Below, piece after piece: positions 3,878 to 53,839 of a stretch of DNA of 64,000 bases. The DNA is from Marispirochaeta sp. Its GTDB lineage: Bacteria; Spirochaetota; Spirochaetia; JC444; Marispirochaetaceae. The stretch spans positions 160,001 to 224,000 of the forward strand of contig CAXXFF010000004.1 in assembly GCA_963676835.2 (NCBI GenBank). The letters run 5' to 3'. Numbering within the stretch: the stretch's first letter is position 1; the number at the start of each line of letters is the position of its first letter. The notes under the pieces were generated by a model. That model was not told the DNA's origin. It searched no databases and worked only from the letters and a program-made list of their open reading frames with translations. Both the position numbers and the translations under genes were made by a program.

Positions 3878-5428
3878 ATGAAAGCAGCCGTAGTACGCAT
3901 CAACGCACTTTCCGCTTTACTTTTTTTCTGCATTTTTCCTTTACTCCAAGAGCTGAACGCAACTCCCCTGATTATCGGCTCCGAACCGGACTATCCCCCT
4001 TTCTGCACAATGGATGAGAATGGAGAGGCCTCAGGTTTTTCCGTTGACCTTTTCAGGGCAAGTGCCGAGGCCATGGGCTATGACGTTCAGTTTGTCGTAA
4101 GACCGTGGAATATCCTGCTTGAGCAGCTCAGAAACGGTGAGATAGATGCTCTTCCCCTGGTTGGATACTCAGAGAGCCGGGCGGAGTATCTTGATTTCAC
4201 CTTTCCCTACACAACCCTGCGGGGTGCGGTTTTTGTTCGCAGGAGCGAGAAAAACATACATACCCTTGAGGATCTCAAGGCGCGGGATATACTCGTCATG
4301 CAGGGAGATAATGCAGACGAATACATAAGCCGGAACAATATATCGGATTCAATTATCCGAACTGATTCGTTTGATATAGCCTTCAGACTGCTTCAATCCG
4401 GAGCTCATGATGCAGTAATTGCCCAGAGGCTTATGGGAGAAAAGCTGCTTGAGGAAATGGAGATTGATTCCATTGTTCCTCTGGATATCGAACTGCCGGG
4501 ATTTGCACAGCAGTTTCGCTTTGCCGTAACCAGAGGAAACAGTAAACTTCTGGAAGATCTCGATACCGGATTACTGCAGACAATATCAGATGGAACCTAT
4601 TTCCGTCTTCATACTGAATGGTTCAAAGCACAAGATTGGCACGATATTCCTCTACAGGAAAAACTCTATTCCCTGTTATGGATAATTATTCCGGTGCTGC
4701 TGATACTCCTGGTCACTTTTATTCTTTACCTGCGCCTGGATATACAACGAAAAACACGCAGGCTTAAAGAGGAGATCAAGCAAAGACAGGAGACAGAAGA
4801 GTCTCTTCACAAGCTGCTCAAGGAAAAAGAGACCCTACTGAAAGAGGTGCATCACAGAATCAAGAATAACTTTGCCACGGTGGAAAGCCTTTTATCACTT
4901 CAGGCAGCAGAGATGAAAAACGACGAAGCAAAATCTTCCTTACTCAATTCCATGAGCAGGGTAAGCAGCATGAGACTTCTGTACGATAAAATGCTTTTAT
5001 CTGATAACTATAAAAGTACGTCATTAAGGTTTTATCTCTCCAATCTTATAGATGAGATTATCCAGCTGTATCAGGGCGTAACAGAAATTCGGGTGGAATC
5101 GCATATTGACGATATAGTCCTGGAACCGGGAATACTCTTTTCCCTCGGCCTTATGGTTAATGAGCTCATGACCAACTCGTTTAAATATGCCTTCCCTTCC
5201 GCAAAGGATGGACAGCTGAGCATCGAGGTTAGGACCGATGACACCATGCTCTACCTCAGGATGCAGGACAACGGAAATGGACTGCCGAAAAACTTCGTAC
5301 TCGAAAATCAGGAAGGATTCGGTCTGAACCTGGTCCAGATGCTGGTGGAACAGTATCTGGGGGAGTTCAGCATGAAATCGGATGGAGAAGGAACCTCTGC
5401 CGATATCAGCATTCATCTTCCCAAGTGA
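3878..5428 (+). CDS. Sensor histidine kinase with periplasmic amino-acid-binding (SBP_bac_3) domain, HisKA_2 type
   Basis: DYPPF binding domain, TM helix, KEVHHRIKNN H-box, NELMTNSFKYA and DNGNG; start uncertain (3797/3848/3878). Confidence 0.9.
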   Translation: MKAAVVRINALSALLFFCIFPLLQELNATPLIIGSEPDYPPFCTMDENGEASGFSVDLFRASAEAMGYDVQFVVRPWNILLEQLRNGEIDALPLVGYSESRAEYLDFTFPYTTLRGAVFVRRSEKNIHTLEDLKARDILVMQGDNADEYISRNNISDSIIRTDSFDIAFRLLQSGAHDAVIAQRLMGEKLLEEMEIDSIVPLDIELPGFAQQFRFAVTRGNSKLLEDLDTGLLQTISDGTYFRLHTEWFKAQDWHDIPLQEKLYSLLWIIIPVLLILLVTFILYLRLDIQRKTRRLKEEIKQRQETEESLHKLLKEKETLLKEVHHRIKNNFATVESLLSLQAAEMKNDEAKSSLLNSMSRVSSMRLLYDKMLLSDNYKSTSLRFYLSNLIDEIIQLYQGVTEIRVESHIDDIVLEPGILFSLGLMVNELMTNSFKYAFPSAKDGQLSIEVRTDDTMLYLRMQDNGNGLPKNFVLENQEGFGLNLVQMLVEQYLGEFSMKSDGEGTSADISIHLPK

Positions 5429-5473
5429 CTAAAGAGCCTTATGGTTACCTTTCGATATAGACATCCTCTAACG

Positions 5474-5502
5474 TTGACACCCCCGGCCTATTTCACTACT
5501 AT
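5474..5502 (+). promoter_or_regulatory. sigma70 promoter of tRNA-Arg
   Basis: TTGACA-17bp-TACTAT ending 11 nt before the tRNA. Confidence 0.8.
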
Positions 5503-5513
5503 TCTCACCACAC

Positions 5514-5580
<67 letters not shown>

Positions 5581-5587
<7 letters not shown>

Positions 5588-5630
5588 AAAAGAAAGGACC
5601 AGCTTCGGCTGGTCCTTTCTTTTTACCCCC
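5581..5630 (+). terminator. Intrinsic terminator within a perfect 23-bp inverted repeat
   Basis: GGGGGTAAAAAGAAAGGACCAGC-TTCG-GCTGGTCCTTTCTTTTTACCCCC. Confidence 0.85.
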
Positions 5631-5648
5631 TATGTGTGCGGAACACAA

Positions 5649-5813
5649 GCGCGTTCGAATCGTGTGCAGGAATCCGCCAAAGGCGGTATTCCAACCCAAG
5701 GCTATGACAGGGTTTTCCCTTATGGGAAAAGCCCGAGAATAGCCGCAGTGGCCAGCGATTCGCGAAGCGATATCGCGAGCCGAAGGTTTACGCAGTAAAC
5801 CGAACGGTCGGGG
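5649..5813. repeat. tRNA-linked multi-hairpin element (REP-like) bracketed by pieces of a tRNA 3' end copy
   Basis: GCGTTCGAATCG at 5651 repeats tRNA 5565-5576; four hairpins follow; ends in GTCGGGG. Confidence 0.55.
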
Positions 5814-5865: not shown

Positions 5866-6486
5866 CTACAGAACCTTGAAGACAAGCACTTCACAGGTGG
5901 AATCCTCTTCTTTAACATACTCAATGGTCTGCTTTTCAAGTAATTCCCATTTATCCTGCCTCTCCAAATCGGAGGTAATCTCACTATAATTTTGATCCTT
6001 CCAGGCATCTGTTTTCACAGTAAAGCAGACTGTACCGCCAGACCGGATGATTCGTACAAGTTCATACAACGCACCTGGCCCGACATGACCGAAGGTAAAA
6101 GTACCGACACTGATTAGTGCATCATAGGAACCAGACGCTATATCCAGCGGCTTATTCAGGTCTGCCTGAATGAGTTTTTTATATACATTTTTCTTCTGTG
6201 CCTGAGCCAGCATTGCCTCGGAATAGTCCAGACCGTCTATGGTACTGATCCCTCTCCCGGACAAAAGAGAACCAATAATCCCGGTTCCGCAGCCCACATC
6301 CAATACTTTGTTTTCATTATCCACACCAGACCGAATAAATATATTTACTGTTATTGCAGGAGCCGGGTATCCCATTTCATTGAGTAAATCATTATCATAG
6401 CTTTCCGCCCACTTACCGTACACTGCTGCCAGATCATCTGCAGTCTCAGCACTTATCGCCTCTTCATGTATTTCGCGTCTTCCCAT
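5866..6486 (-). CDS. Class I SAM-dependent methyltransferase
   Basis: VLDVGCGTG motif I, DYSEAML, YDxWAxxYD-like N-terminus; SD GGGAG before ATG 6486. Confidence 0.9.
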   Translation of the reverse strand: MGRREIHEEAISAETADDLAAVYGKWAESYDNDLLNEMGYPAPAITVNIFIRSGVDNENKVLDVGCGTGIIGSLLSGRGISTIDGLDYSEAMLAQAQKKNVYKKLIQADLNKPLDIASGSYDALISVGTFTFGHVGPGALYELVRIIRSGGTVCFTVKTDAWKDQNYSEITSDLERQDKWELLEKQTIEYVKEEDSTCEVLVFKVL

Positions 6487-6651
6487 TGCACAACTCCCTT
6501 TTAATAAACTATTAAGGCTCAAAGAAACCTTTTATATACGGCACGGCCGCTTATGCCATAACCATGGTACCTTCCCGTTCCGGGATTGTACAGGAACTAA
6601 AAAAACAATGAACACTTTATTCCCCTCCTCTAATTCTCTATACTCTTACCT

Positions 6652-7830
6652 ATGAACAAGATGCCCTCCAAAACCAGATGTATCGGAATCCTCACCTCCG
6701 GCGGAGACTGCCCCGGGTTGAATGCAGCCATCCGCGGTGTCGCCAAGGCGGCCATGAACAACTACGGGATTAAGGTTGTCGGTATTCAGGACGGGTTCCG
6801 CGGCCTGGTGGAAAACCGCACCATGATTCTGGACGACAGAAATGTTTCCGGGCTCCTGACCATGGGAGGAACCATCCTCGGCACAAGCCGCGACAAGCCT
6901 CACAAAATGCCCATGGGGGGCAAGAAGCAGGACATGACCATGGCAGCTGTGGAAAATATCCGGCGTCATCAGATTGACTGCCTGGTATGTCTCGGAGGAG
7001 GCGGCACTCAGAAGAATGCCTACCACCTGCACACCAAAGGAGGCATAAACGTTATTACCCTCCCGAAAACAATCGATAACGATGTCTGGGGTACCGATGT
7101 TACCTTCGGCTTTGATACCGCCATGGGAATTGCAACCGAAGCAATCGACAGGCTTCACACCACCGCCACCAGCCATCACCGCATAATTGTCTGTGAGATT
7201 ATGGGAAACAATGCCGGATGGCTCGCTCTGGGAGCTGGAGTTGCCGGAGGCGCCGATGTAATTCTGATTCCGGAAATTCCCTACGATCTCAATGCAGTAG
7301 CCGAGCACCTTACCGAACGACGCCGGACAGGAAAACGGTTTTCCATAATCGCCATAGCAGAGGGTGCACGCTCCATTGCCGAAGTTGAAGCTGCCGGTCT
7401 GTCAGAGGATGATGAGAAAAAATCAGATAAAGACGAGATCCGCTTCGACGAGCAGGGATTTCCCTACCATCCGGTAAAGGAGCCCAAGGCGTCACAGCTT
7501 ACCCGGCAGATACAGGAACTTACCGGCATAGAAGCCCGGGTTACCTTTCTCGGCCATGTACAGCGGGGAGGCATCCCCTCCGCCACAGACAGGCTTTACA
7601 GCACCCTGTTAGGAACAAAAGCTGCTGAACTGCTGGCTGCAGGCGAATACAATGTAATGGTCTCGATAGAAGGAAAAACCTGTACCTCCATCCCCCTTGG
7701 TGAGGTCGCGGGCAAAAAGAAAACTGTACCTTTTGATCATCCCTGGATCCGCAGTGCCCGGCTGGTGGGAACCTGCCTGGGAGAACCGAAGAAAACCGCA
7801 ATTGGAACAGAGGGAAAAAAAGGAAATTAA
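6652..7830 (+). CDS. pfkA: 6-phosphofructokinase (probably ATP-dependent)
   Basis: [24 protein letters not shown] (Gly at the phosphoryl-donor specificity site), [21 protein letters not shown]. Confidence 0.95.
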
Positions 7831-45598: not shown

Positions 45599-46288
45599 AT
45601 GAAAAAGAAAACCGTCATCTTTGATCTGGACGATACCCTTATCGAATATGGTGAATCTGAAAAATACGGACTTGAGTCGGCATTTAAGGATCTTGACCTG
45701 CCCTACAGTGAAGAGATTCTCAACTTGTATAAAAAGATAAACCGGGAACTCTGGGCAGTATATGCCGAAGGGAAAATTACCTCTGAAGATCTCCGCCATC
45801 TTCGTTTCAGCCGGCTGCTCTCAGAACTCGGCCACAAGGAAGATCTTGTCCAATCAGCCCGAAACCGCTACCTCTACCATTTCGGACAGAAAGGCGTCCC
45901 CTCCCCCTATGCGGAAACAGTGCTTAAGCAGCTCGAAAGCAGCGGCCATATCCTCGGAGCTATTACCAACGGCTTTACCGATATGCAGCGCCCCAGACTG
46001 CAAAACTCCGGGCTGGGCCGTTTTTTTAAAGACCTGATTATTTCCGATGAGGTAAAGCTTGCCAAACCGGACCCCCGGATATTCGCACTGGCCATGGAGA
46101 GACTGAATATTACCGACAAGGATTCGGTCTACTACGTGGGAGACAACCCAGTGGATGACATTCAGGGGGCCCGGGAGTTCGGTATTAAAACCATATGGAT
46201 AGACCGGGGAGACAGGGAATCAGTCCCCGACGCGGATTTCCGCACCGGGGACTTAAGAGACATTCCGGGGTTTATCGGCGGGAGCTAA
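45599..46288 (+). CDS. YjjG-family HAD nucleotidase
   Basis: FDLDDTL, ITNGF, KPDPRIF, VGDNPVDDI. Confidence 0.88.
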   Translation: MKKKTVIFDLDDTLIEYGESEKYGLESAFKDLDLPYSEEILNLYKKINRELWAVYAEGKITSEDLRHLRFSRLLSELGHKEDLVQSARNRYLYHFGQKGVPSPYAETVLKQLESSGHILGAITNGFTDMQRPRLQNSGLGRFFKDLIISDEVKLAKPDPRIFALAMERLNITDKDSVYYVGDNPVDDIQGAREFGIKTIWIDRGDRESVPDADFRTGDLRDIPGFIGGS

Positions 46289-46314
46289 TCCTGCTCGTAG
46301 GCCCCCATGGAGAT

Positions 46315-46563
46315 ATGGAAGAACTCACCGACCGGGAAAAAGAGGTTCTTGATTTGCTCTATGCGGGAGACAAGTACAGTGATATTGCTGAAAAACTATT
46401 CTTATCGCTGGCTACGGTAAAAACCCATGTTTCCCATATCTACCAGAAACTGAATATACGCCGGCGTTCGGAACTTTATGTTAAATTTAACAGACGTAAA
46501 CAAGAGGGAGAAAACCGGGGACCAGCCGTTCCGACATCAAATTCTTTGAAAGTAAAAAGCTGA
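46315..46563 (+). CDS. Stand-alone LuxR/GerE HTH regulator
   Basis: LTDREKEVL...IAEKLFLSLATVKTHVSHIYQKL. Confidence 0.85.
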   Translation: MEELTDREKEVLDLLYAGDKYSDIAEKLFLSLATVKTHVSHIYQKLNIRRRSELYVKFNRRKQEGENRGPAVPTSNSLKVKS

Positions 46564-47780: not shown

Positions 47781-48953
47781 ATGGATAAAGGAATGGCTCA
47801 TATAATTTCCGACTTGTGGAACATTGAAGAGCGGGTTCGGTCCCTACGGGAAATTATTCTGGCAAACCTTGTGATGTTGTCTGAAATTCCCGCACCAACC
47901 TTTAATGAAACAGCCAGGATGCAGTTTCTGGTAAACCGCTTTAACGAGCTACAGCTCCTGAACTGCTCCACCGACGAAAAAGGCAACGGCCTTGGAATAA
48001 TCCCGGGAGAGACCGGGGAACGGAATATTCTTATAGTCGGCCACCTGGATACCGTGTTCGATTCCAAGGTGGATCACACCATTAGTGTTGAACCCCACCG
48101 CATCATAGGCCCCGGTGTAGGCGATAACGGTCTGGGGATTGCGGTCATTGCCACCCTTCCCCTTATTCTTCAGCATCTGAATATTAAAACCAAAAGCAAT
48201 ATTATCCTTATGGGGAGTGCTCAATCCCTTGGTATGGGAAACATCCGGGGTTTACGCTTTTTTCTTGATCATGCGGATATGCCCATTCATTCCGGGATCT
48301 GCGTGGAAGGGGTAAAACTGGGGAGAATATCCTATTCCTCCATAGGTATGATGCGCTGCGGAATCAAGTTTTCCGTTCCAGAGGAGTATGACTGGACCCG
48401 CTTCGGTGCAGTGGGGGCTATAGTTACCATTAACGATGCCATAAACCGGATTCTTGAAATTCCCCTGCCCAAACGGCCTAAAACAAATATCGTACTTGGA
48501 TCGGTTGAGGGAGGTACGGGCTTCAATACAATCGCCACCAATGCTTCTCTCAAGTTCGAGATCCGCTCGGAATCGGGCAGAATGGTTAAAAATATCGGAC
48601 AGAAAGCTGAGTACATAGCTCACGAGGTTGCCAGCCATTCCGGTGCAGATGTGGATTTCCGCATTTATGCCCAGCGCCGCCCCGGGGGGATTCCTTTTTC
48701 TCATCCACTGGCCACAACTGCCAGAGAAATCATGCGTTCCCTGGATATTACTCCCCGGATTACTCCATCAACCTCCGAGCTCTCGGCTTTTATTGATAAA
48801 AAAATACCGGCGGTAACCCTCGGTCTGACAGACGGGGAAAACCTTGACCAGTTGAATGAATCCATCGAAATCGAACCGATTTTCAAGGGCATCGCACAGC
48901 TCATAGGCCTTATTCTTGCAATTGACGGAGGACACTGTGACGAACCTAAATGA
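47781..48953 (+). CDS. M20/M25/M40 metallo-hydrolase homolog with degenerate active site
   Basis: GHLDTVF, GPGVGDN and dimerisation domain GGTGFNTIA present; EE motif and final His absent. Confidence 0.8.
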   Translation: MDKGMAHIISDLWNIEERVRSLREIILANLVMLSEIPAPTFNETARMQFLVNRFNELQLLNCSTDEKGNGLGIIPGETGERNILIVGHLDTVFDSKVDHTISVEPHRIIGPGVGDNGLGIAVIATLPLILQHLNIKTKSNIILMGSAQSLGMGNIRGLRFFLDHADMPIHSGICVEGVKLGRISYSSIGMMRCGIKFSVPEEYDWTRFGAVGAIVTINDAINRILEIPLPKRPKTNIVLGSVEGGTGFNTIATNASLKFEIRSESGRMVKNIGQKAEYIAHEVASHSGADVDFRIYAQRRPGGIPFSHPLATTAREIMRSLDITPRITPSTSELSAFIDKKIPAVTLGLTDGENLDQLNESIEIEPIFKGIAQLIGLILAIDGGHCDEPK

Positions 48954-49980
48954 ATGGGTAAATAAAAATACCTACCACCACTCCCAGTTCTGGGATCTTA
49001 AAAACCTTATAAAAGAGAAGGAGCGGCAGGGAATTACCGTCTCCCTCTGTATTCCCACACTGAACGAGGAAAAGACAATTGGCAAAGAGATTGTCATCTT
49101 CAAATCGGAGCTGGTAAACCGCTATCCTCTGCTTGATGAGATTGCGGTTATCGACTCCGGCAGTGAAGACAAAACCCTGGAGGTGGCCGCTTCCTTCGGC
49201 GCAGATACCTACCTGAGTAACGATATTCTGCCGGAAATTGAGGCAAAGAAAGGCAAGGGAGAGAATCTCTGGAAGGCTATTTATCAGCTGAAAGGGGATA
49301 TCATCGTCTACATAGATGCAGACATAAAGAACATACATCCCCGTTTCGTCTACGGCCTGGTTGCCCCCCTTATTTACCGGCCCGAGGTTCAGTACGTAAA
49401 AGCCTTCTACGACCGCCCCCTGGCCTTCAGTCAGGGAGTACGCCCTTCCGGAGGCGGCAGGGTTACAGAAATTCTTGTACGCCCCCTGTTCAGCCTCTTC
49501 TTCCCCGAACTTACAGCAATTATCCAGCCTTTGAGCGGAGAATATGCCGTCCGCAGGGAAGTACTGGAGCAGATCCCCTTCCCTATCGGCTACGGCGTTG
49601 AAACAAGCCATCTTATCGATGTCTACCAGCTCTACGGCCTCAGCGCTTTCGCCCAGACCGACCTGGACCAGCGGGTTCACCGCAATCAGCAGACCCGCTC
49701 TCTGGGCAGAATGTCCTTCGGTATTCTGCAGACCTTCCTGTCCCGGCTGGACAAGCTTGAGATTATCGGAGACCTGCCACCCATGGATACGGTACTGCAC
49801 CAGTTTCAGGCCCACGACGACAAATTTGAAGCGGTGGAATACAAAATCGTGGAAGAAGAGCGTCCACCCATGCTGGAGATTCCAAGCTACCGGACTGTTC
49901 GGGATGAACTGCTTAAGGAGCGGGATAAACGGCAGAAGAAAAAGCGCAAACCCCGGACAAAGACTGAACCGAAAGAGTAA
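48937..49980 (+). CDS. gpgS: Glucosyl-3-phosphoglycerate synthase
   Basis: PTLNEE, DSGS.D, GKGENLW, DAD, GGGRVTE, QPLSGEYA, YGVE, RVHRNQ; GTG start after GGAGG. Confidence 0.9.
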   Translation: MTNLNEWVNKNTYHHSQFWDLKNLIKEKERQGITVSLCIPTLNEEKTIGKEIVIFKSELVNRYPLLDEIAVIDSGSEDKTLEVAASFGADTYLSNDILPEIEAKKGKGENLWKAIYQLKGDIIVYIDADIKNIHPRFVYGLVAPLIYRPEVQYVKAFYDRPLAFSQGVRPSGGGRVTEILVRPLFSLFFPELTAIIQPLSGEYAVRREVLEQIPFPIGYGVETSHLIDVYQLYGLSAFAQTDLDQRVHRNQQTRSLGRMSFGILQTFLSRLDKLEIIGDLPPMDTVLHQFQAHDDKFEAVEYKIVEEERPPMLEIPSYRTVRDELLKERDKRQKKKRKPRTKTEPKE

Positions 49981-50077: not shown

Positions 50078-50144
50078 CGGCCGCTTGTTGCGGGATGGAC
50101 CCCATCCCGAATTAAACAGAATGCTATTTATACAGGAGAAGTCT

Positions 50145-50348
50145 ATGGTATTGGGAATACCGGATTGGAGCGTTTCGCTGGTCTATATCCTCATGATAGC
50201 CTCGTCTCTGCTCTGCATCGTCTACGGTTTCAGAATGTGGAACAAGGAAGGCGATATCAGTGAAAAAGAGCTGGAAGAGGAAAAACGCTGGGCCGAGGAA
50301 GAAAAAGACCTGGAGAAGGACCTGGCCGATAACGGAGGCACCACATGA
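50145..50348 (+). CDS. Symporter small accessory protein (copy 1)
   Basis: MVLGIPD, one TM segment LCIVYG..WN, acidic tail; ATGA overlap with symporter. Confidence 0.85.
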   Translation: MVLGIPDWSVSLVYILMIASSLLCIVYGFRMWNKEGDISEKELEEEKRWAEEEKDLEKDLADNGGTT

Positions 50349-51934
50349 GTATGTTCTGGCTTGTAACAATAGTAGTTATCTACCTTGGCCTGGTGGCTTA
50401 TCTTGGATACCGCGGATTCTCCGGAACTAAGAACTCTCTCGATTACATGGTGGGCGGACGCAATATCCATCCCTATGTTATGGCCCTTTCCTATGGTGCG
50501 ACCTTCATTTCCACCTCCGCCATAGTCGGCTTCGGAGGGGTTGCCGCTCTTTTCGGAATGAGCCTCTACTGGCTCACCTTCTGCAATATCTTTGTGGGGA
50601 TTTTCATCGCCTTTGTGTTCTTCGGAAAGAGAACCCGCAGAATGGGACTCAATCTGGATGCCCACACCTTTCCTGAATTCCTGGGACGCAGACTGAACTC
50701 GCAGTTTATTCAGCGGATGATGGGGCTGGTAATTTTTATCTTTATGCCTCTTTATGCTGCAGCCGTTCTTATCGGCGCAAGCCGCATTATGGAAGGACTC
50801 CTGGGAATTCCTTTCCTCTATTCCGTGACCATCTTCTCTGTTCTGGTTGCGGTATATGTGGTAATGGGCGGCCTCAAAGGCGTTATGTACACCGATGCAC
50901 TCCAGGGCACCCTGATGTTCATCGGAATGATTTTTCTTCTCTTTTTTATCTACATTAAACTCGGCGGCATTACCAAAGCCCATTCCGCCCTTACCGCCAT
51001 GGCCAATATGGTGCCGGACAACCTTAAAGCCATAGGGCATCAGGGGTGGACCGCATCACCGAAAGCAGGATCGCCCCTGTGGTGGACCATCTACAGCTCC
51101 ATCGTCCTCGGTGTTGGTATCGGCGTACTTGCTCAGCCCCAGCTGGTTGTTCGCTATATGACCGTAAAAAGCAACCAGGAACTGAACCGGGCGGTACTTA
51201 TCGGCGGACTGTTTATTCTGGTCATGACCGGAACGGCCTTTACCGTAGGCGCCCTTTCCAATGTCTACTTTGCTGAGGCAACCGGCAAGCTCGCCATTCA
51301 GGTTGCCGAGGGAAATACCGACAAGGTGATACCCGCCTTTATTGCCTCAGCCATGCCCTCATGGTTCGGTTATCTGTTTATGCTGGTTATTCTCTCCGCT
51401 GGAATGTCCACCCTGAGCAGCCAGTACCATGCCATCGGAACCTCCATAGGACGTGACTTCTATGCCGGCGGTCATGCCAAGGCAGGTAAACGCGGAACAG
51501 AAGTCCTAGTAACCCGAATCGGGGTTCTGGCCAGTATTCTACTGACAGTCTGGCTGGCACTGAACATGGGCGCAGGAATTATCGCCAGGGCAACGGCCAT
51601 CTTCTTCGGGCTGATGGCAGGCTGCTTTCTGGCACCCTATGTTGCAGCCCTTTTCTGGAAAAAACTTACCCGGGCCGGGGCTATTTCCGGAATTATCTCC
51701 GGACTGGCAGTAATGGTATTCTGCTTTCTGTTTACCCATGCAAGTGAAGCCAAGGTATTCGGGCTTGCCCAGGCAATCTTCGGCCGTCCTACAATGCTGG
51801 AAGGAATCTGGACAGTGGTTGATCCCATGGTTATCGGACTTCCGGTTTCAACCCTTTTTACCATTGTAGTAAGCCTTTTTACAAAGAATGAAGATACAGA
51901 ACTGATTGAAAAAGCCTTCGACGGTATAGGGTAA
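50345..51934 (+). CDS. Sodium:solute symporter (copy 1)
   Basis: DYMVGGR, GGLKGVMYTDALQG, QPQLVVRY, SAGMSTLSS. Confidence 0.93.
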   Translation: MSMFWLVTIVVIYLGLVAYLGYRGFSGTKNSLDYMVGGRNIHPYVMALSYGATFISTSAIVGFGGVAALFGMSLYWLTFCNIFVGIFIAFVFFGKRTRRMGLNLDAHTFPEFLGRRLNSQFIQRMMGLVIFIFMPLYAAAVLIGASRIMEGLLGIPFLYSVTIFSVLVAVYVVMGGLKGVMYTDALQGTLMFIGMIFLLFFIYIKLGGITKAHSALTAMANMVPDNLKAIGHQGWTASPKAGSPLWWTIYSSIVLGVGIGVLAQPQLVVRYMTVKSNQELNRAVLIGGLFILVMTGTAFTVGALSNVYFAEATGKLAIQVAEGNTDKVIPAFIASAMPSWFGYLFMLVILSAGMSTLSSQYHAIGTSIGRDFYAGGHAKAGKRGTEVLVTRIGVLASILLTVWLALNMGAGIIARATAIFFGLMAGCFLAPYVAALFWKKLTRAGAISGIISGLAVMVFCFLFTHASEAKVFGLAQAIFGRPTMLEGIWTVVDPMVIGLPVSTLFTIVVSLFTKNEDTELIEKAFDGIG

Positions 51935-51998: not shown

Positions 51999-52027
51999 TT
52001 GACCCCTGAATATACTCAGCGTACAAT
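51999..52027 (+). promoter_or_regulatory. sigma70 promoter of the second symporter operon
   Basis: TTGACC-17-TACAAT. Confidence 0.7.
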
Positions 52028-52049
52028 AACTCTTCAAAAAGGAGATTAT

Positions 52050-52253
52050 ATGATACTGGGTATAGCTGATTTCAGCGTGGCACTGGTCTACCTGCTCATG
52101 ATTTTCGCCTCTCTGCTGTGCATAATCTACGGTTTCCGCATGTGGAACCGGGAAGGTGATGTTACCGAAAAGGAAATGCAGGAAGAAATTCAATGGGCCA
52201 GAGAAGAGATGGACCTCGAACGTGATCTTGCAGATGACGGAGGCAGACAATGA
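52050..52253 (+). CDS. Symporter small accessory protein (copy 2)
   Basis: Paralog of 50145..50348; SD AAGGAG. Confidence 0.85.
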   Translation: MILGIADFSVALVYLLMIFASLLCIIYGFRMWNREGDVTEKEMQEEIQWAREEMDLERDLADDGGRQ

Positions 52254-53839
52254 ACCTGTTCTGGCTTGTCACTGTAATTGTAATCTACCTGGGAGTTGTT
52301 GCATATCTTGGATACCGGGGCTTTGCGGGAACCAAAAACTCTCTGGACTACATGGTCGGGGGACGGAATATTCACCCCTATGTTATGGCCATGTCCTACG
52401 GCGCCACCTTCATTTCCACCTCGGCAATTGTCGGATTCGGCGGGATTGCTTCACTCTTCGGCATGAGCCTTCACTGGCTTACCTTCTGCAACATCTTTTT
52501 CGGCATATTCATTGCCTTTGTTTTCTTCGGGAAAAGAACACGGAGAATGGGGCTCAACCTGGATGCCCATACCTTTCCGGAGTTTCTTGGCCGCAGACTC
52601 GGCTCAACCTTCATACAGCGTCTCATGGGACTGGTTATTTTTATCTTTATGCCCCTCTATGCTGCGGCTGTGCTTATAGGCGCCAGTCGAATCATTGAAG
52701 GACTCTTAGGTGTCCCCTATCTTTATTCAGTTACCATGTTCTCTATCCTCGTCGCAGTTTATGTAATTATGGGAGGCCTTAAAGGCGTTATGTACACCGA
52801 TGCACTTCAGGGAAGTCTGATGTTTTTCGGCATGCTGGTGCTGCTGGTTTCCATTTACGCCCGGCTGGGGGGGATTGTGGACGCGCATACCGCCCTCACA
52901 AATATTGCAGATATGGTTCCGGACAACCTGAAGAGTATTGGTCACAGAGGATGGACTGCATCTCCGGCTTTAGGGTCTCCCCTATGGTGGACCATTTATT
53001 CCTCCCTGGTACTGGGTGTCGGAATCGGCGTTATTGCCCAGCCCCAGCTGATAGTCCGCTATATGACGGTGAAAAGCAACAAAGAGCTGAACCGTGCAGT
53101 GCTAATAGGGGGATTATTTATTCTGGTTACCGTCGGTACCGCCTATACCGTAGGATCCCTGACCAATGTCTATTTTATGAACACAAGCGGTAAACTGGCA
53201 ATTCAGGTGGCAGAAGGAAATACAGATAAGGTAATTCCAGCTTTCATAGCCTCGGCTATGCCTTCCTGGTTCAGTTATCTGTTCATGTTGGTAATACTCT
53301 CTGCAGGAATGTCTACATTGAGCAGCCAGTATCATGCAATCGGAACCTCAATCGGCCGGGATTTCTATGCCGGAGGCAGGGCCAAAGAGGGGAAACGGGG
53401 AACAGAAGTACTGATCACCAGAATCGGCGTACTGTTCAGTATACTTTTAACCGTATGGCTTGCCCTCAACATGGGTGCAGGAATTATCGCCCGGGCAACG
53501 GCGATCTTTTTCGGACTTATGGCTGGTTGCTTTCTTGCGCCCTATACTGCGGCCCTGTTCTGGAAACGTCTGACCCGCCCTGGTGCCATAGCCGGGATAC
53601 TCTCCGGCCTGGTTGTACTCATTTTCAGTTTTCTTTTTTTACATGCTCAGGAAGCAGCTGTTTTCGGTATTGGACAGAAATTGTTCGGTCGCACAACCCT
53701 GATGGGGGGATCCTGGCCGTCTGTTGACCCTCTGGTGTTCTCCCTGCCGATATCAACCTTTTTTACCGTGGTTGTCAGCCTGCTGACCCGGAAGGAAGAC
53801 TCGGAACTGATTGAGAAAGCCTTCGACGGTATCGGCTGA
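52250..53839 (+). CDS. Sodium:solute symporter (copy 2)
   Basis: Same length (529 aa) and colinear with copy 1. Confidence 0.93.
   Translation: MNLFWLVTVIVIYLGVVAYLGYRGFAGTKNSLDYMVGGRNIHPYVMAMSYGATFISTSAIVGFGGIASLFGMSLHWLTFCNIFFGIFIAFVFFGKRTRRMGLNLDAHTFPEFLGRRLGSTFIQRLMGLVIFIFMPLYAAAVLIGASRIIEGLLGVPYLYSVTMFSILVAVYVIMGGLKGVMYTDALQGSLMFFGMLVLLVSIYARLGGIVDAHTALTNIADMVPDNLKSIGHRGWTASPALGSPLWWTIYSSLVLGVGIGVIAQPQLIVRYMTVKSNKELNRAVLIGGLFILVTVGTAYTVGSLTNVYFMNTSGKLAIQVAEGNTDKVIPAFIASAMPSWFSYLFMLVILSAGMSTLSSQYHAIGTSIGRDFYAGGRAKEGKRGTEVLITRIGVLFSILLTVWLALNMGAGIIARATAIFFGLMAGCFLAPYTAALFWKRLTRPGAIAGILSGLVVLIFSFLFLHAQEAAVFGIGQKLFGRTTLMGGSWPSVDPLVFSLPISTFFTVVVSLLTRKEDSELIEKAFDGIG

Follow-up and report, generated by a model that had tools for sequence, protein, structure and literature searches.

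A 64,000-nucleotide (nt) stretch of DNA from Marispirochaeta sp. (GenBank assembly GCA_963676835.2, contig CAXXFF010000004.1, positions 160,001 to 224,000; hereafter the window) carries a gene for a protein of the M20 peptidase fold that overlaps the start of gpgS, the gene for the glycosyltransferase glucosyl-3-phosphoglycerate synthase (GpgS). Judged from its alignments and its structural model, the M20-like protein folds well as an M20 homolog but has an incomplete catalytic set: the Glu-Glu pair and the last metal-binding His of active relatives are both replaced. The gene is nevertheless under strong purifying selection rather than decaying, it lies directly upstream of gpgS in nearly all related loci, usually overlapping it, and other Spirochaetota that lack it carry a regulatory-type domain fused to GpgS instead. 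Whether the M20-fold protein serves GpgS as a bound, non-catalytic accessory subunit, one that adjusts or stabilizes the first committed step on the way to (mannosyl)glucosylglycerate and perhaps responds to a ligand, is in our judgment evenly balanced. A sequence-only reading of this DNA had proposed a pseudo-enzyme tied to GpgS, and that proposal stands on the conserved linkage and on the loss of the Glu-Glu pair.

The M20-like protein and its GpgS neighbor

The M20-like protein is only distantly recognizable by profile. Its Pfam matches are weak (Peptidase_M20, 34.9 bits; Peptidase_M28, 24.3 bits; M20_dimer, 23.4 bits), and among the NCBIfam M20 models the highest score, 41.5 bits, fell far short of the 297.7 required. 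The best solved homolog found with HMMER is the poly(aspartic acid) hydrolase PahZ2 (7LJH; E = 2.8e-36, residues 27-382). An AlphaFold2 model of the protein (predicted local distance difference test score 87.1, predicted template modeling score 0.85) retrieved M20 enzymes exclusively in Foldseek, with 7LJH at the top (template modeling score 0.81, 24% identity), and the model, the Foldseek matches and the Pfam matches to M20 and M20_dimer agree on a two-domain fold comprising a catalytic and a dimerization domain. PahZ2 and the PepT-like M20 tripeptidases (3GB0, 3RZA) share this fold, and their H-x-D motif, bridging Asp and later acidic ligand align with H88-L89-D90, D115 (in GDN) and E176 of the window protein, the last of these standing opposite an Asp in 7LJH. 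PahZ2, which has zinc bound according to its entry title, contains the GEEG pair and the final His, whereas the window protein has S149-L150 and D356 at these places. In the alignment over the Glu-Glu region, GNVGEEGSGDLRG pairs with GSAQSLGMGNIRG, and GEEGSGDLRG of 7LJH lies opposite QSLGMGNIRG, so that the catalytic (general-base) Glu corresponds to S149, the metal-binding Glu to L150, and the preceding Gly to Q148. Toward the C terminus, ARAHSLDE of 7LJH lies opposite ENLDQLNE, so that D356 takes the position of the last metal His. The sequence-only reading had named the same retained motifs (HLD and the bridging Asp) and the same two losses, and the alignment to 7LJH agrees with it on each. 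We know of no reported link of PahZ2 or PepT to gpgS.

The downstream gene product passes the NCBIfam equivalog model NF010496 with 399.1 bits against a cut-off of 262, and it aligns with the solved GT81 enzymes MpgS of R. xylanophilus (3F1Y, E = 5.9e-66) and GpgS of M. tuberculosis (Rv1208; 4Y6N, E = 1.4e-60). The DxD, GKGE and R-x-H-R-N motifs are conserved in all three; in the window protein the first and last of these are D127-A-D129 and R246-V-H248-R-N250, and both are invariant in 27 orthologs. Going by these motifs, GpgS is apparently active. Its best solved match, the Rubrobacter enzyme, was deposited as a mannosyl-3-phosphoglycerate synthase, and sequence cannot tell a glucose donor from a mannose donor. 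The archaeal-type GpgS model NF040724 found no second candidate, its sole match in the genome of the window being the same gpgS gene. Rv1208 and R. xylanophilus MpgS were deposited as single proteins, whereas gpgS of the type seen in the window is overlapped by the gene for an M20-like partner.

The 17-nt overlap described in the sequence-only reading is confirmed on the sequence: the TGA stop of the M20-like gene occupies 48951-48953 and the in-frame GTG of gpgS is at 48937. An alternative TTG start lies further upstream, at 48916; the N-termini of gpgS homologs agree with the GTG. The two genes are likely to be translationally coupled through this overlap. Coordinates of the pair and of the residues discussed here are collected in Table 1.

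Conservation of the linkage and of the altered active site

A word-indexed search with the M20-like protein returned 1736 relatives at E ≤ 1e-5; the best 120 of these are all at least 60% identical to it, and those that are named come from Spirochaetota. We analyzed 80 genome loci in which the M20-like protein is 47-97% identical to that of the window. gpgS follows directly 3' of the M20-like gene in 79 of them, and the contig of the 80th stops at the M20-like match. An overlap, most often of 11, 14 or 17 nt, is present at 71 of the 73 junctions that could be scored; the simple start-assignment rule used for this left 6 loci without an assignable start. A metagenome scan seeded with a narrower alignment of a distant subgroup gave 36 further loci, eight of them cut by the contig end; gpgS is directly downstream in 26 of the 28 that have room for it, and the two with room and no gpgS are very distant (23-24% identity). 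The neighborhood survey suggested by the sequence-only reading thus bears out co-conservation of the two genes. Clustering all open reading frames (ORFs) of the 80 genome loci revealed no constant neighbor other than gpgS. The next most common are a DHODH-like gene (35 loci) and a cluster of ABC ATPases (33 loci), and no pathway link of either to the pair was seen. The DHODH-like (dihydroorotate-dehydrogenase-like) gene (NF005741, 371 bits) occurs in the flanks of about 6 kb; in locus L001, for example, it lies upstream on the opposite strand (4765-5763, reverse strand).

Position 88 is His in 79 of the 80 loci, and positions 90, 115 and 176 are Asp, Asp and Glu in all 80. Position 149 is Ser in 79 loci and Thr in one, position 150 is Leu in 76 and Ile in four, and position 148 is Arg in 70, Gln in nine and Lys in one. 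Position 356 varies more (Asn in 49, Gly in 10, Asp in nine, Ser in seven, Ala in two, Arg in two, Thr in one) and is never His. Across 25 more distant gpgS-linked metagenome copies, H88, D90, D115 and E176 are kept in every one and S149 in 22. The Glu-Glu pair is found in none of the 80 loci and in none of these 25 copies; the last His, absent from all 80 close relatives, is kept in 15 of the 25. Loss of the Glu-Glu pair is therefore universal among linked copies, and loss of the His is a feature of the subclade to which the window belongs. The check on conserved loss that the sequence-only reading suggested is accordingly borne out throughout for Glu-Glu, and for the His among close relatives but not in those 15 distant copies. 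With the residue losses present in 80 of 80 loci and the overlap in 71 of 73, the arrangement in the window is not a chance one.

The same division appears in a broader sample. An exhaustive representative search gave 2858 matches at E ≤ 0.001, from which the best 150 were taken, 115 of them full length. Among these best 150, all 47 full-length representatives scoring at least 251 bits lack Glu-Glu, and 57 of the 68 with lower scores have the canonical GEEGLG and the His. In a tree from a quick, unfinished maximum-likelihood run, all 25 Glu-Glu relatives fall on one side of a branch with Shimodaira-Hasegawa-like approximate likelihood ratio test (SH-aLRT) support of 98, and 30 of 33 gpgS-linked copies fall on the other. 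In the ESM Atlas, the clusters nearest to the M20-like protein belong most commonly to Kiritimatiellota, Deinococcota and Verrucomicrobiota.

Selection on the gene is strong. Compared with three close relatives, the ratio of nonsynonymous to synonymous divergence (dN/dS) ranges from 0.009 to 0.032 in the M20-like gene and from 0.002 to 0.045 in gpgS, the synonymous term in these comparisons being large and partly saturated. Between the window (47781-49900 compared) and locus L021, from a Marispirochaeta metagenome-assembled genome, the two proteins are 97-99% identical at a synonymous divergence of about 1.3-1.4, and this high protein identity despite synonymous divergence points to very strong constraint on both. 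The M20-like protein evolves the faster of the two (median identity 61% against 76% for GpgS; in 78 of 79 loci GpgS is better conserved), and its reading frame is intact in 79 of the 80 loci. In the remaining one, L020, also from a metagenome-assembled genome, the M20-like gene (6001-7170) has an in-frame stop at codon 52 and the gpgS downstream is intact; a sequencing error would explain this stop, as would a rare loss.

Degenerate partners and fused domains in Spirochaetota

To place the pair within its phylum we used a sample of 401 Spirochaetota genomes. GpgS exceeds the cut-off in 28 of these, at 29 loci, and the M20-like profile matches nine genomes at E ≤ 1e-40. Seven of the M20-like matches adjoin gpgS (G000, G030, G094, G230, G332, G380 and G110:C4). 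In an eighth genome (G003) the M20-like gene and gpgS both lie at contig ends, and the ninth match (G175), a canonical Glu-Glu enzyme, lacks a gpgS on the remainder of its contig, some 200 nt. The 29 gpgS loci divide into seven with a recognizable M20-like partner, three with a degenerate partner, 18 with a fused EIIA-2 domain and one (G070) on a 2.4-kb contig too short to judge. Thus an M20-like partner or a fused EIIA-2 domain accompanies GpgS at 28 of the 29, and within this sample the two are mutually exclusive.

The three degenerate partners (G323, G347 and G110:C15) are ORFs of about 400-460 amino acids (aa) that abut or overlap the 5' end of gpgS and have no Pfam match. For G323 and G110:C15 the alignment to the family profile spans the whole ORF (E = 4e-16 and 4.7e-16; hhalign probability 98.7%), and the ORF of G347 matches the family by tblastn at E = 3e-10. 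All three also have other residues at the positions of H88, D90 and E176. The pairing with gpgS therefore outlives the metal site: three Spirochaetota lineages without these residues are still coupled.

At the 18 loci with a fused domain, the gpgS product is 526-565 aa long and continues beyond GpgS into a C-terminal domain (all 18 long ORFs checked). Two of these proteins were scanned with Pfam and the domain is PTS_EIIA_2; in the other 16 it is 60-84% identical to this domain. No M20-like ORF of at least 250 aa was found within about 2 kb of any of the 18 fused genes. An alignment of the 18 domains has conserved TPI...FG.F.DD and EHFEWL motifs.

Fusions of another kind are found outside the phylum sample. 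Longer GpgS homologs number 845 in a large protein collection, and most of the best 120 of them, which we examined, carry a Usp domain (PF00582), some being named as Chloroflexota or Anaerolineae. Usp is a regulatory-type domain, and the EIIA-2 and Usp fusions together indicate that GpgS repeatedly acquires sensor-type modules. Five others of the same 120 (P0271, P0274, P0276, P0359 and P0381) contain a second glycosyltransferase domain, MGS_GT. Such homologs of about 750 aa were considered as possible M20 fusions and rejected, since the extra part is GT2/MGS_GT (hhalign M20 probability 0.1-0.2%); their composition suggests bifunctional sugar-glycerate synthases.

Table 1. Features of the M20-like/gpgS pair in the window, and related partners and fusions in other loci and proteins
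Feature	Location	Strand	Basis or remark
M20-fold pseudo-peptidase gene, 390 aa	47781..48953	+	ORF; upstream partner of gpgS
H88-L89-D90 codons, first metal-ligand motif, retained	48042..48050	+	Alignment to 7LJH
D115 codon, bridging Asp (GDN), retained	48123..48125	+	Alignment to 7LJH
S149-L150 codons, replacing the catalytic Glu and the metal-binding Glu	48225..48230	+	HMMER alignment to 7LJH
E176 codon, acidic metal ligand, retained	48306..48308	+	Alignment to 7LJH
D356 codon, replacing the last metal His	48846..48848	+	Alignment to 7LJH
GGAGGA, Shine-Dalgarno-like site for gpgS, within the M20-like coding region	48927..48932	+	4 nt before the GTG
Overlap of gpgS GTG start and M20-like TGA stop, 17 nt	48937..48953	+	Read from the sequence
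gpgS, GT81 glucosyl-3-phosphoglycerate synthase, 347 aa from GTG	48937..49980	+	NF010496 and solved relatives
Degenerate gpgS-coupled M20 homolog	L086:2852-4087	+	No Pfam match; H88, D90 and E176 replaced
Degenerate gpgS-coupled M20 homolog	L085:5237-6442	-	No Pfam match; H88, D90 and E176 replaced
Degenerate gpgS-coupled M20 homolog	L088:2700-4091	+	No Pfam match; H88, D90 and E176 replaced
GpgS-EIIA-2 fusion	L084:3891-5588	+	
GpgS-EIIA-2 fusion	L087:3464-5053	-	
GpgS-EIIA-2 fusions	L134-L149		
Usp fusions among longer GpgS homologs	Proteins within P0275-P0390		

Pathway context and possible roles

In the window, the pair is flanked on its upstream side by a divergent peroxiredoxin gene and on its downstream side by a gene for a small membrane protein followed by a sodium:solute symporter. 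These last two genes form a unit present as a tandem duplicate (50085-51934 and 51999-53839, both on the forward strand), each copy encoding a small membrane protein without a Pfam match (87 aa in one copy, 84 aa in the other) and a symporter of 529 aa; the unit could be an uptake system for a solute or precursor. Further upstream, 1.2-2.2 kb 5' of the pair, are a small LuxR/GerE-type helix-turn-helix gene (46195-46563, forward strand), which recurs near the pair in none of the 80 related loci, and a gene for a HAD nucleotidase (45599-46288, forward strand, about 1.5 kb from the pair). The latter was considered as a candidate for gpgP, the phosphatase gene of the pathway, and rejected: it scores above the YjjG pyrimidine-nucleotidase cut-off and is near the pair in just one of the 80 related loci. 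A scan for promoters and terminators gave nothing above the expectation from shuffled sequence.

No phosphatase gene abuts the pair, as the sequence-only reading had observed, and a dedicated GpgP was not recognized anywhere in the genome (the best TIGR01486 score was 29 bits, the cut-off being 164.75). The genome does contain three genes of the histidine-phosphatase family (His_Phos_1), none of which reaches an NCBIfam cut-off, and by family membership these could serve as GpgP. Related operons offer a further possibility. In L090 (G332) the order is M20-like gene, gpgS, a gene for a 562-aa GT4-like protein and one for a 333-aa HAD-like protein; GT4-like and HAD-like genes also lie 3' of gpgS in L048 and L053, the HAD-like protein of these operons being about 300-330 aa long. 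The GT4-like gene is upstream in seven further genome loci, and in the metagenome set it is downstream on the same strand in nine loci and the HAD-like gene in eight. The genome of the window has homologs of both elsewhere, at G000:C4:469714-471294 for the GT4-like protein (28% identity, E = 2e-35) and at G000:C1:105016-105918 for the HAD-like protein (40% identity, E = 6e-59).

This gene set resembles a known pathway. Rhodopirellula baltica makes mannosylglucosylglycerate through GpgS, the GT4 enzyme MggA and the HAD-like MggB, and MggB takes off the phosphate only after mannosylation, as shown by Cunha et al. (PMC3736172); likewise, gpgS of the related loci is followed by GT4-like and HAD-like genes. 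Supplementary Figures S5 and S6 of that paper list homologs of MggA and MggB in Spirochaeta smaragdinae and other spirochaetes, and the S. smaragdinae M20-like protein is 69% identical to that of the window. The GT4-like and HAD-like genes, as putative counterparts of mggA and mggB, would fit the three-step mannosylglucosylglycerate route. The absence of gpgP beside gpgS is thus likely explained by removal of the phosphate after the second glycosylation. The sequence-only reading was correct about the missing gpgP, but where it argued from this absence to a variant pathway, the operons with GT4-like and HAD-like genes, and the homologs of both in the genome, make a more ordinary explanation likely. 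A peptidase-like fourth gene goes unmentioned in the main text of PMC3736172, where the word 'peptidase' occurs 0 times.

What the fourth protein does is a matter of weighing several roles. The accessory-subunit reading would have the M20-like protein bind GpgS and tune or stabilize the GpgS step of solute synthesis, with a small ligand possibly held in the remnant one-metal pocket and driving the response; we infer the physical binding, the regulatory effect and the ligand sensing from the conserved overlapping pairing, the residue losses and the alternative regulatory-domain fusions. Several observations weigh against it. The invariant H88, D90, D115 and E176 and the near-invariant S149 would, as sequence patterns, fit a one-metal active site as well as they fit a ligand-sensing pocket, and the many further polar residues that are invariant in the M20-like clade would fit a retained active site equally. 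Neither an M20 nor an M28 domain occurs in any of the best 120 of the 845 longer GpgS homologs, and no longer protein containing the M20-like protein was found at E ≤ 1e-10; the absence of fusions is weak evidence in either search. The three most degenerate linked copies form a long, weakly placed branch (support 79) that leaves their common origin with the other copies uncertain. Finally, recombinant GpgS of other organisms works alone, according to the available text of PMC3736172, and together with the structures solved without a partner this means that the partner is dispensable for catalysis as such.

The pocket residues that trouble this reading are the main argument for a repurposed enzyme, in which one metal site (H88, D115 and E176) and the new residues (S149 and Arg, Lys or Gln at 148) would act on an anionic compound of the pathway, for example by removing phosphate from, or otherwise converting, glucosyl-3-phosphoglycerate or its product. 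We consider this unlikely, though several observations speak for it: H88, D90, D115 and E176 stay unchanged in 79-80 of the 80 loci and in all 25 distant linked copies, S149 is nearly as constant (79 of 80, 22 of 25), the residue at 148 is Arg, Gln or Lys in all 80 loci (70, 9 and 1), dN/dS is as low as for the GpgS enzyme, and no gene of the genome matches the dedicated GpgP model. The retained triad is, moreover, equivalent to the tighter-binding zinc site of DapE, an enzyme active with one zinc. However, the general-base Glu is missing from every linked copy, and the three coupled lineages described above have also lost H88, D90 and E176. Related operons already hold a HAD-like phosphatase candidate and a second glycosyltransferase, with homologs at 40% and 28% identity in the genome of the window, and the three histidine-phosphatase-family genes of that genome could act as GpgP; we also know of no phosphatase in the M20 family.

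The degenerate lineages, still coupled without their pocket residues, would sit comfortably with a passive scaffold or a folding or stability factor that senses no ligand and acts on GpgS, perhaps as part of an assembly that includes the GT4-like and HAD-like enzymes. Such a factor would account for the conserved overlapping linkage just as a regulatory subunit would, and the M20 dimerization domain is kept and could bridge GpgS dimers. A mere scaffold does not explain the strict conservation of pocket residues in most of the clade, however, and the modules that stand in its place, EIIA-2 and Usp, are signal-receiving domains, not scaffolds; we regard this possibility as quite improbable. Alternatively, the two genes may share no more than a transcript, the M20-like protein having an unrelated job, such as peptide or amino-acid metabolism in the same stress regulon. 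A common operon is by itself no proof of joint function, and among active enzymes its nearest relatives are PepT-like peptidases and a poly(aspartate) hydrolase. Against this, the overlap and adjacency persist from 97% down to about 21-24% M20-like identity while other neighbors change, the degenerate clade occurs only beside gpgS in the phylum sample (the lone unlinked match, in G175, being the canonical Glu-Glu enzyme), and the peptidase catalytic residues are gone, all of which makes an unrelated job very hard to credit.

A more specific form of the accessory-subunit reading would treat GpgS as a regulated gate with sensor modules that are interchangeable by lineage. A separate dead M20 protein would take this part in some Spirochaetota and probably in other phyla; other Spirochaetota would use a fused PTS EIIA-2 domain, and Chloroflexota-type lineages a fused Usp domain. 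The M20 pseudo-peptidase would then read nitrogen or amino-acid status in its one-metal pocket and switch GpgS allosterically. We offer this as a tentative idea, possible rather than probable.

Pseudoenzyme partners of active enzymes are a known concept, and those reviewed among metallopeptidases (PMC11266112) share with the M20-like protein the loss of catalytic residues, purifying selection and a gene tightly associated with an active enzyme. A dead peptidase paired with a glycosyltransferase instead of its own active cousin would be unusual among such pairs. In the available text of that 2024 review, the string M20 appears solely in reference DOIs. In our search, which left subscription-only literature outside, no paper connected an M20-like partner or EIIA with GpgS or with the solutes it leads to. 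The likely role of the M20-like protein, helping or regulating the synthesis of compatible solutes without being an enzyme itself, is as yet undescribed for the M20 family. The names under which M20-like genes are currently annotated (acetylornithine deacetylase, tripeptidase, M20 metallo-hydrolase) are probably misleading.

Glucosylglycerate and mannosylglucosylglycerate are stress solutes whose accumulation responds to salt and to nitrogen supply. Enzyme-level control of the flux into these solutes is a subject that the available text of PMC3736172 does not cover. The conserved fourth protein of these operons offers a concrete handle, open to testing, on such control, as do the EIIA-2 and Usp domains on GpgS. 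If the accessory-subunit reading is true, M20 would join the metallopeptidase folds that have given rise to pseudoenzymes, here paired with a glycosyltransferase rather than with an active peptidase.

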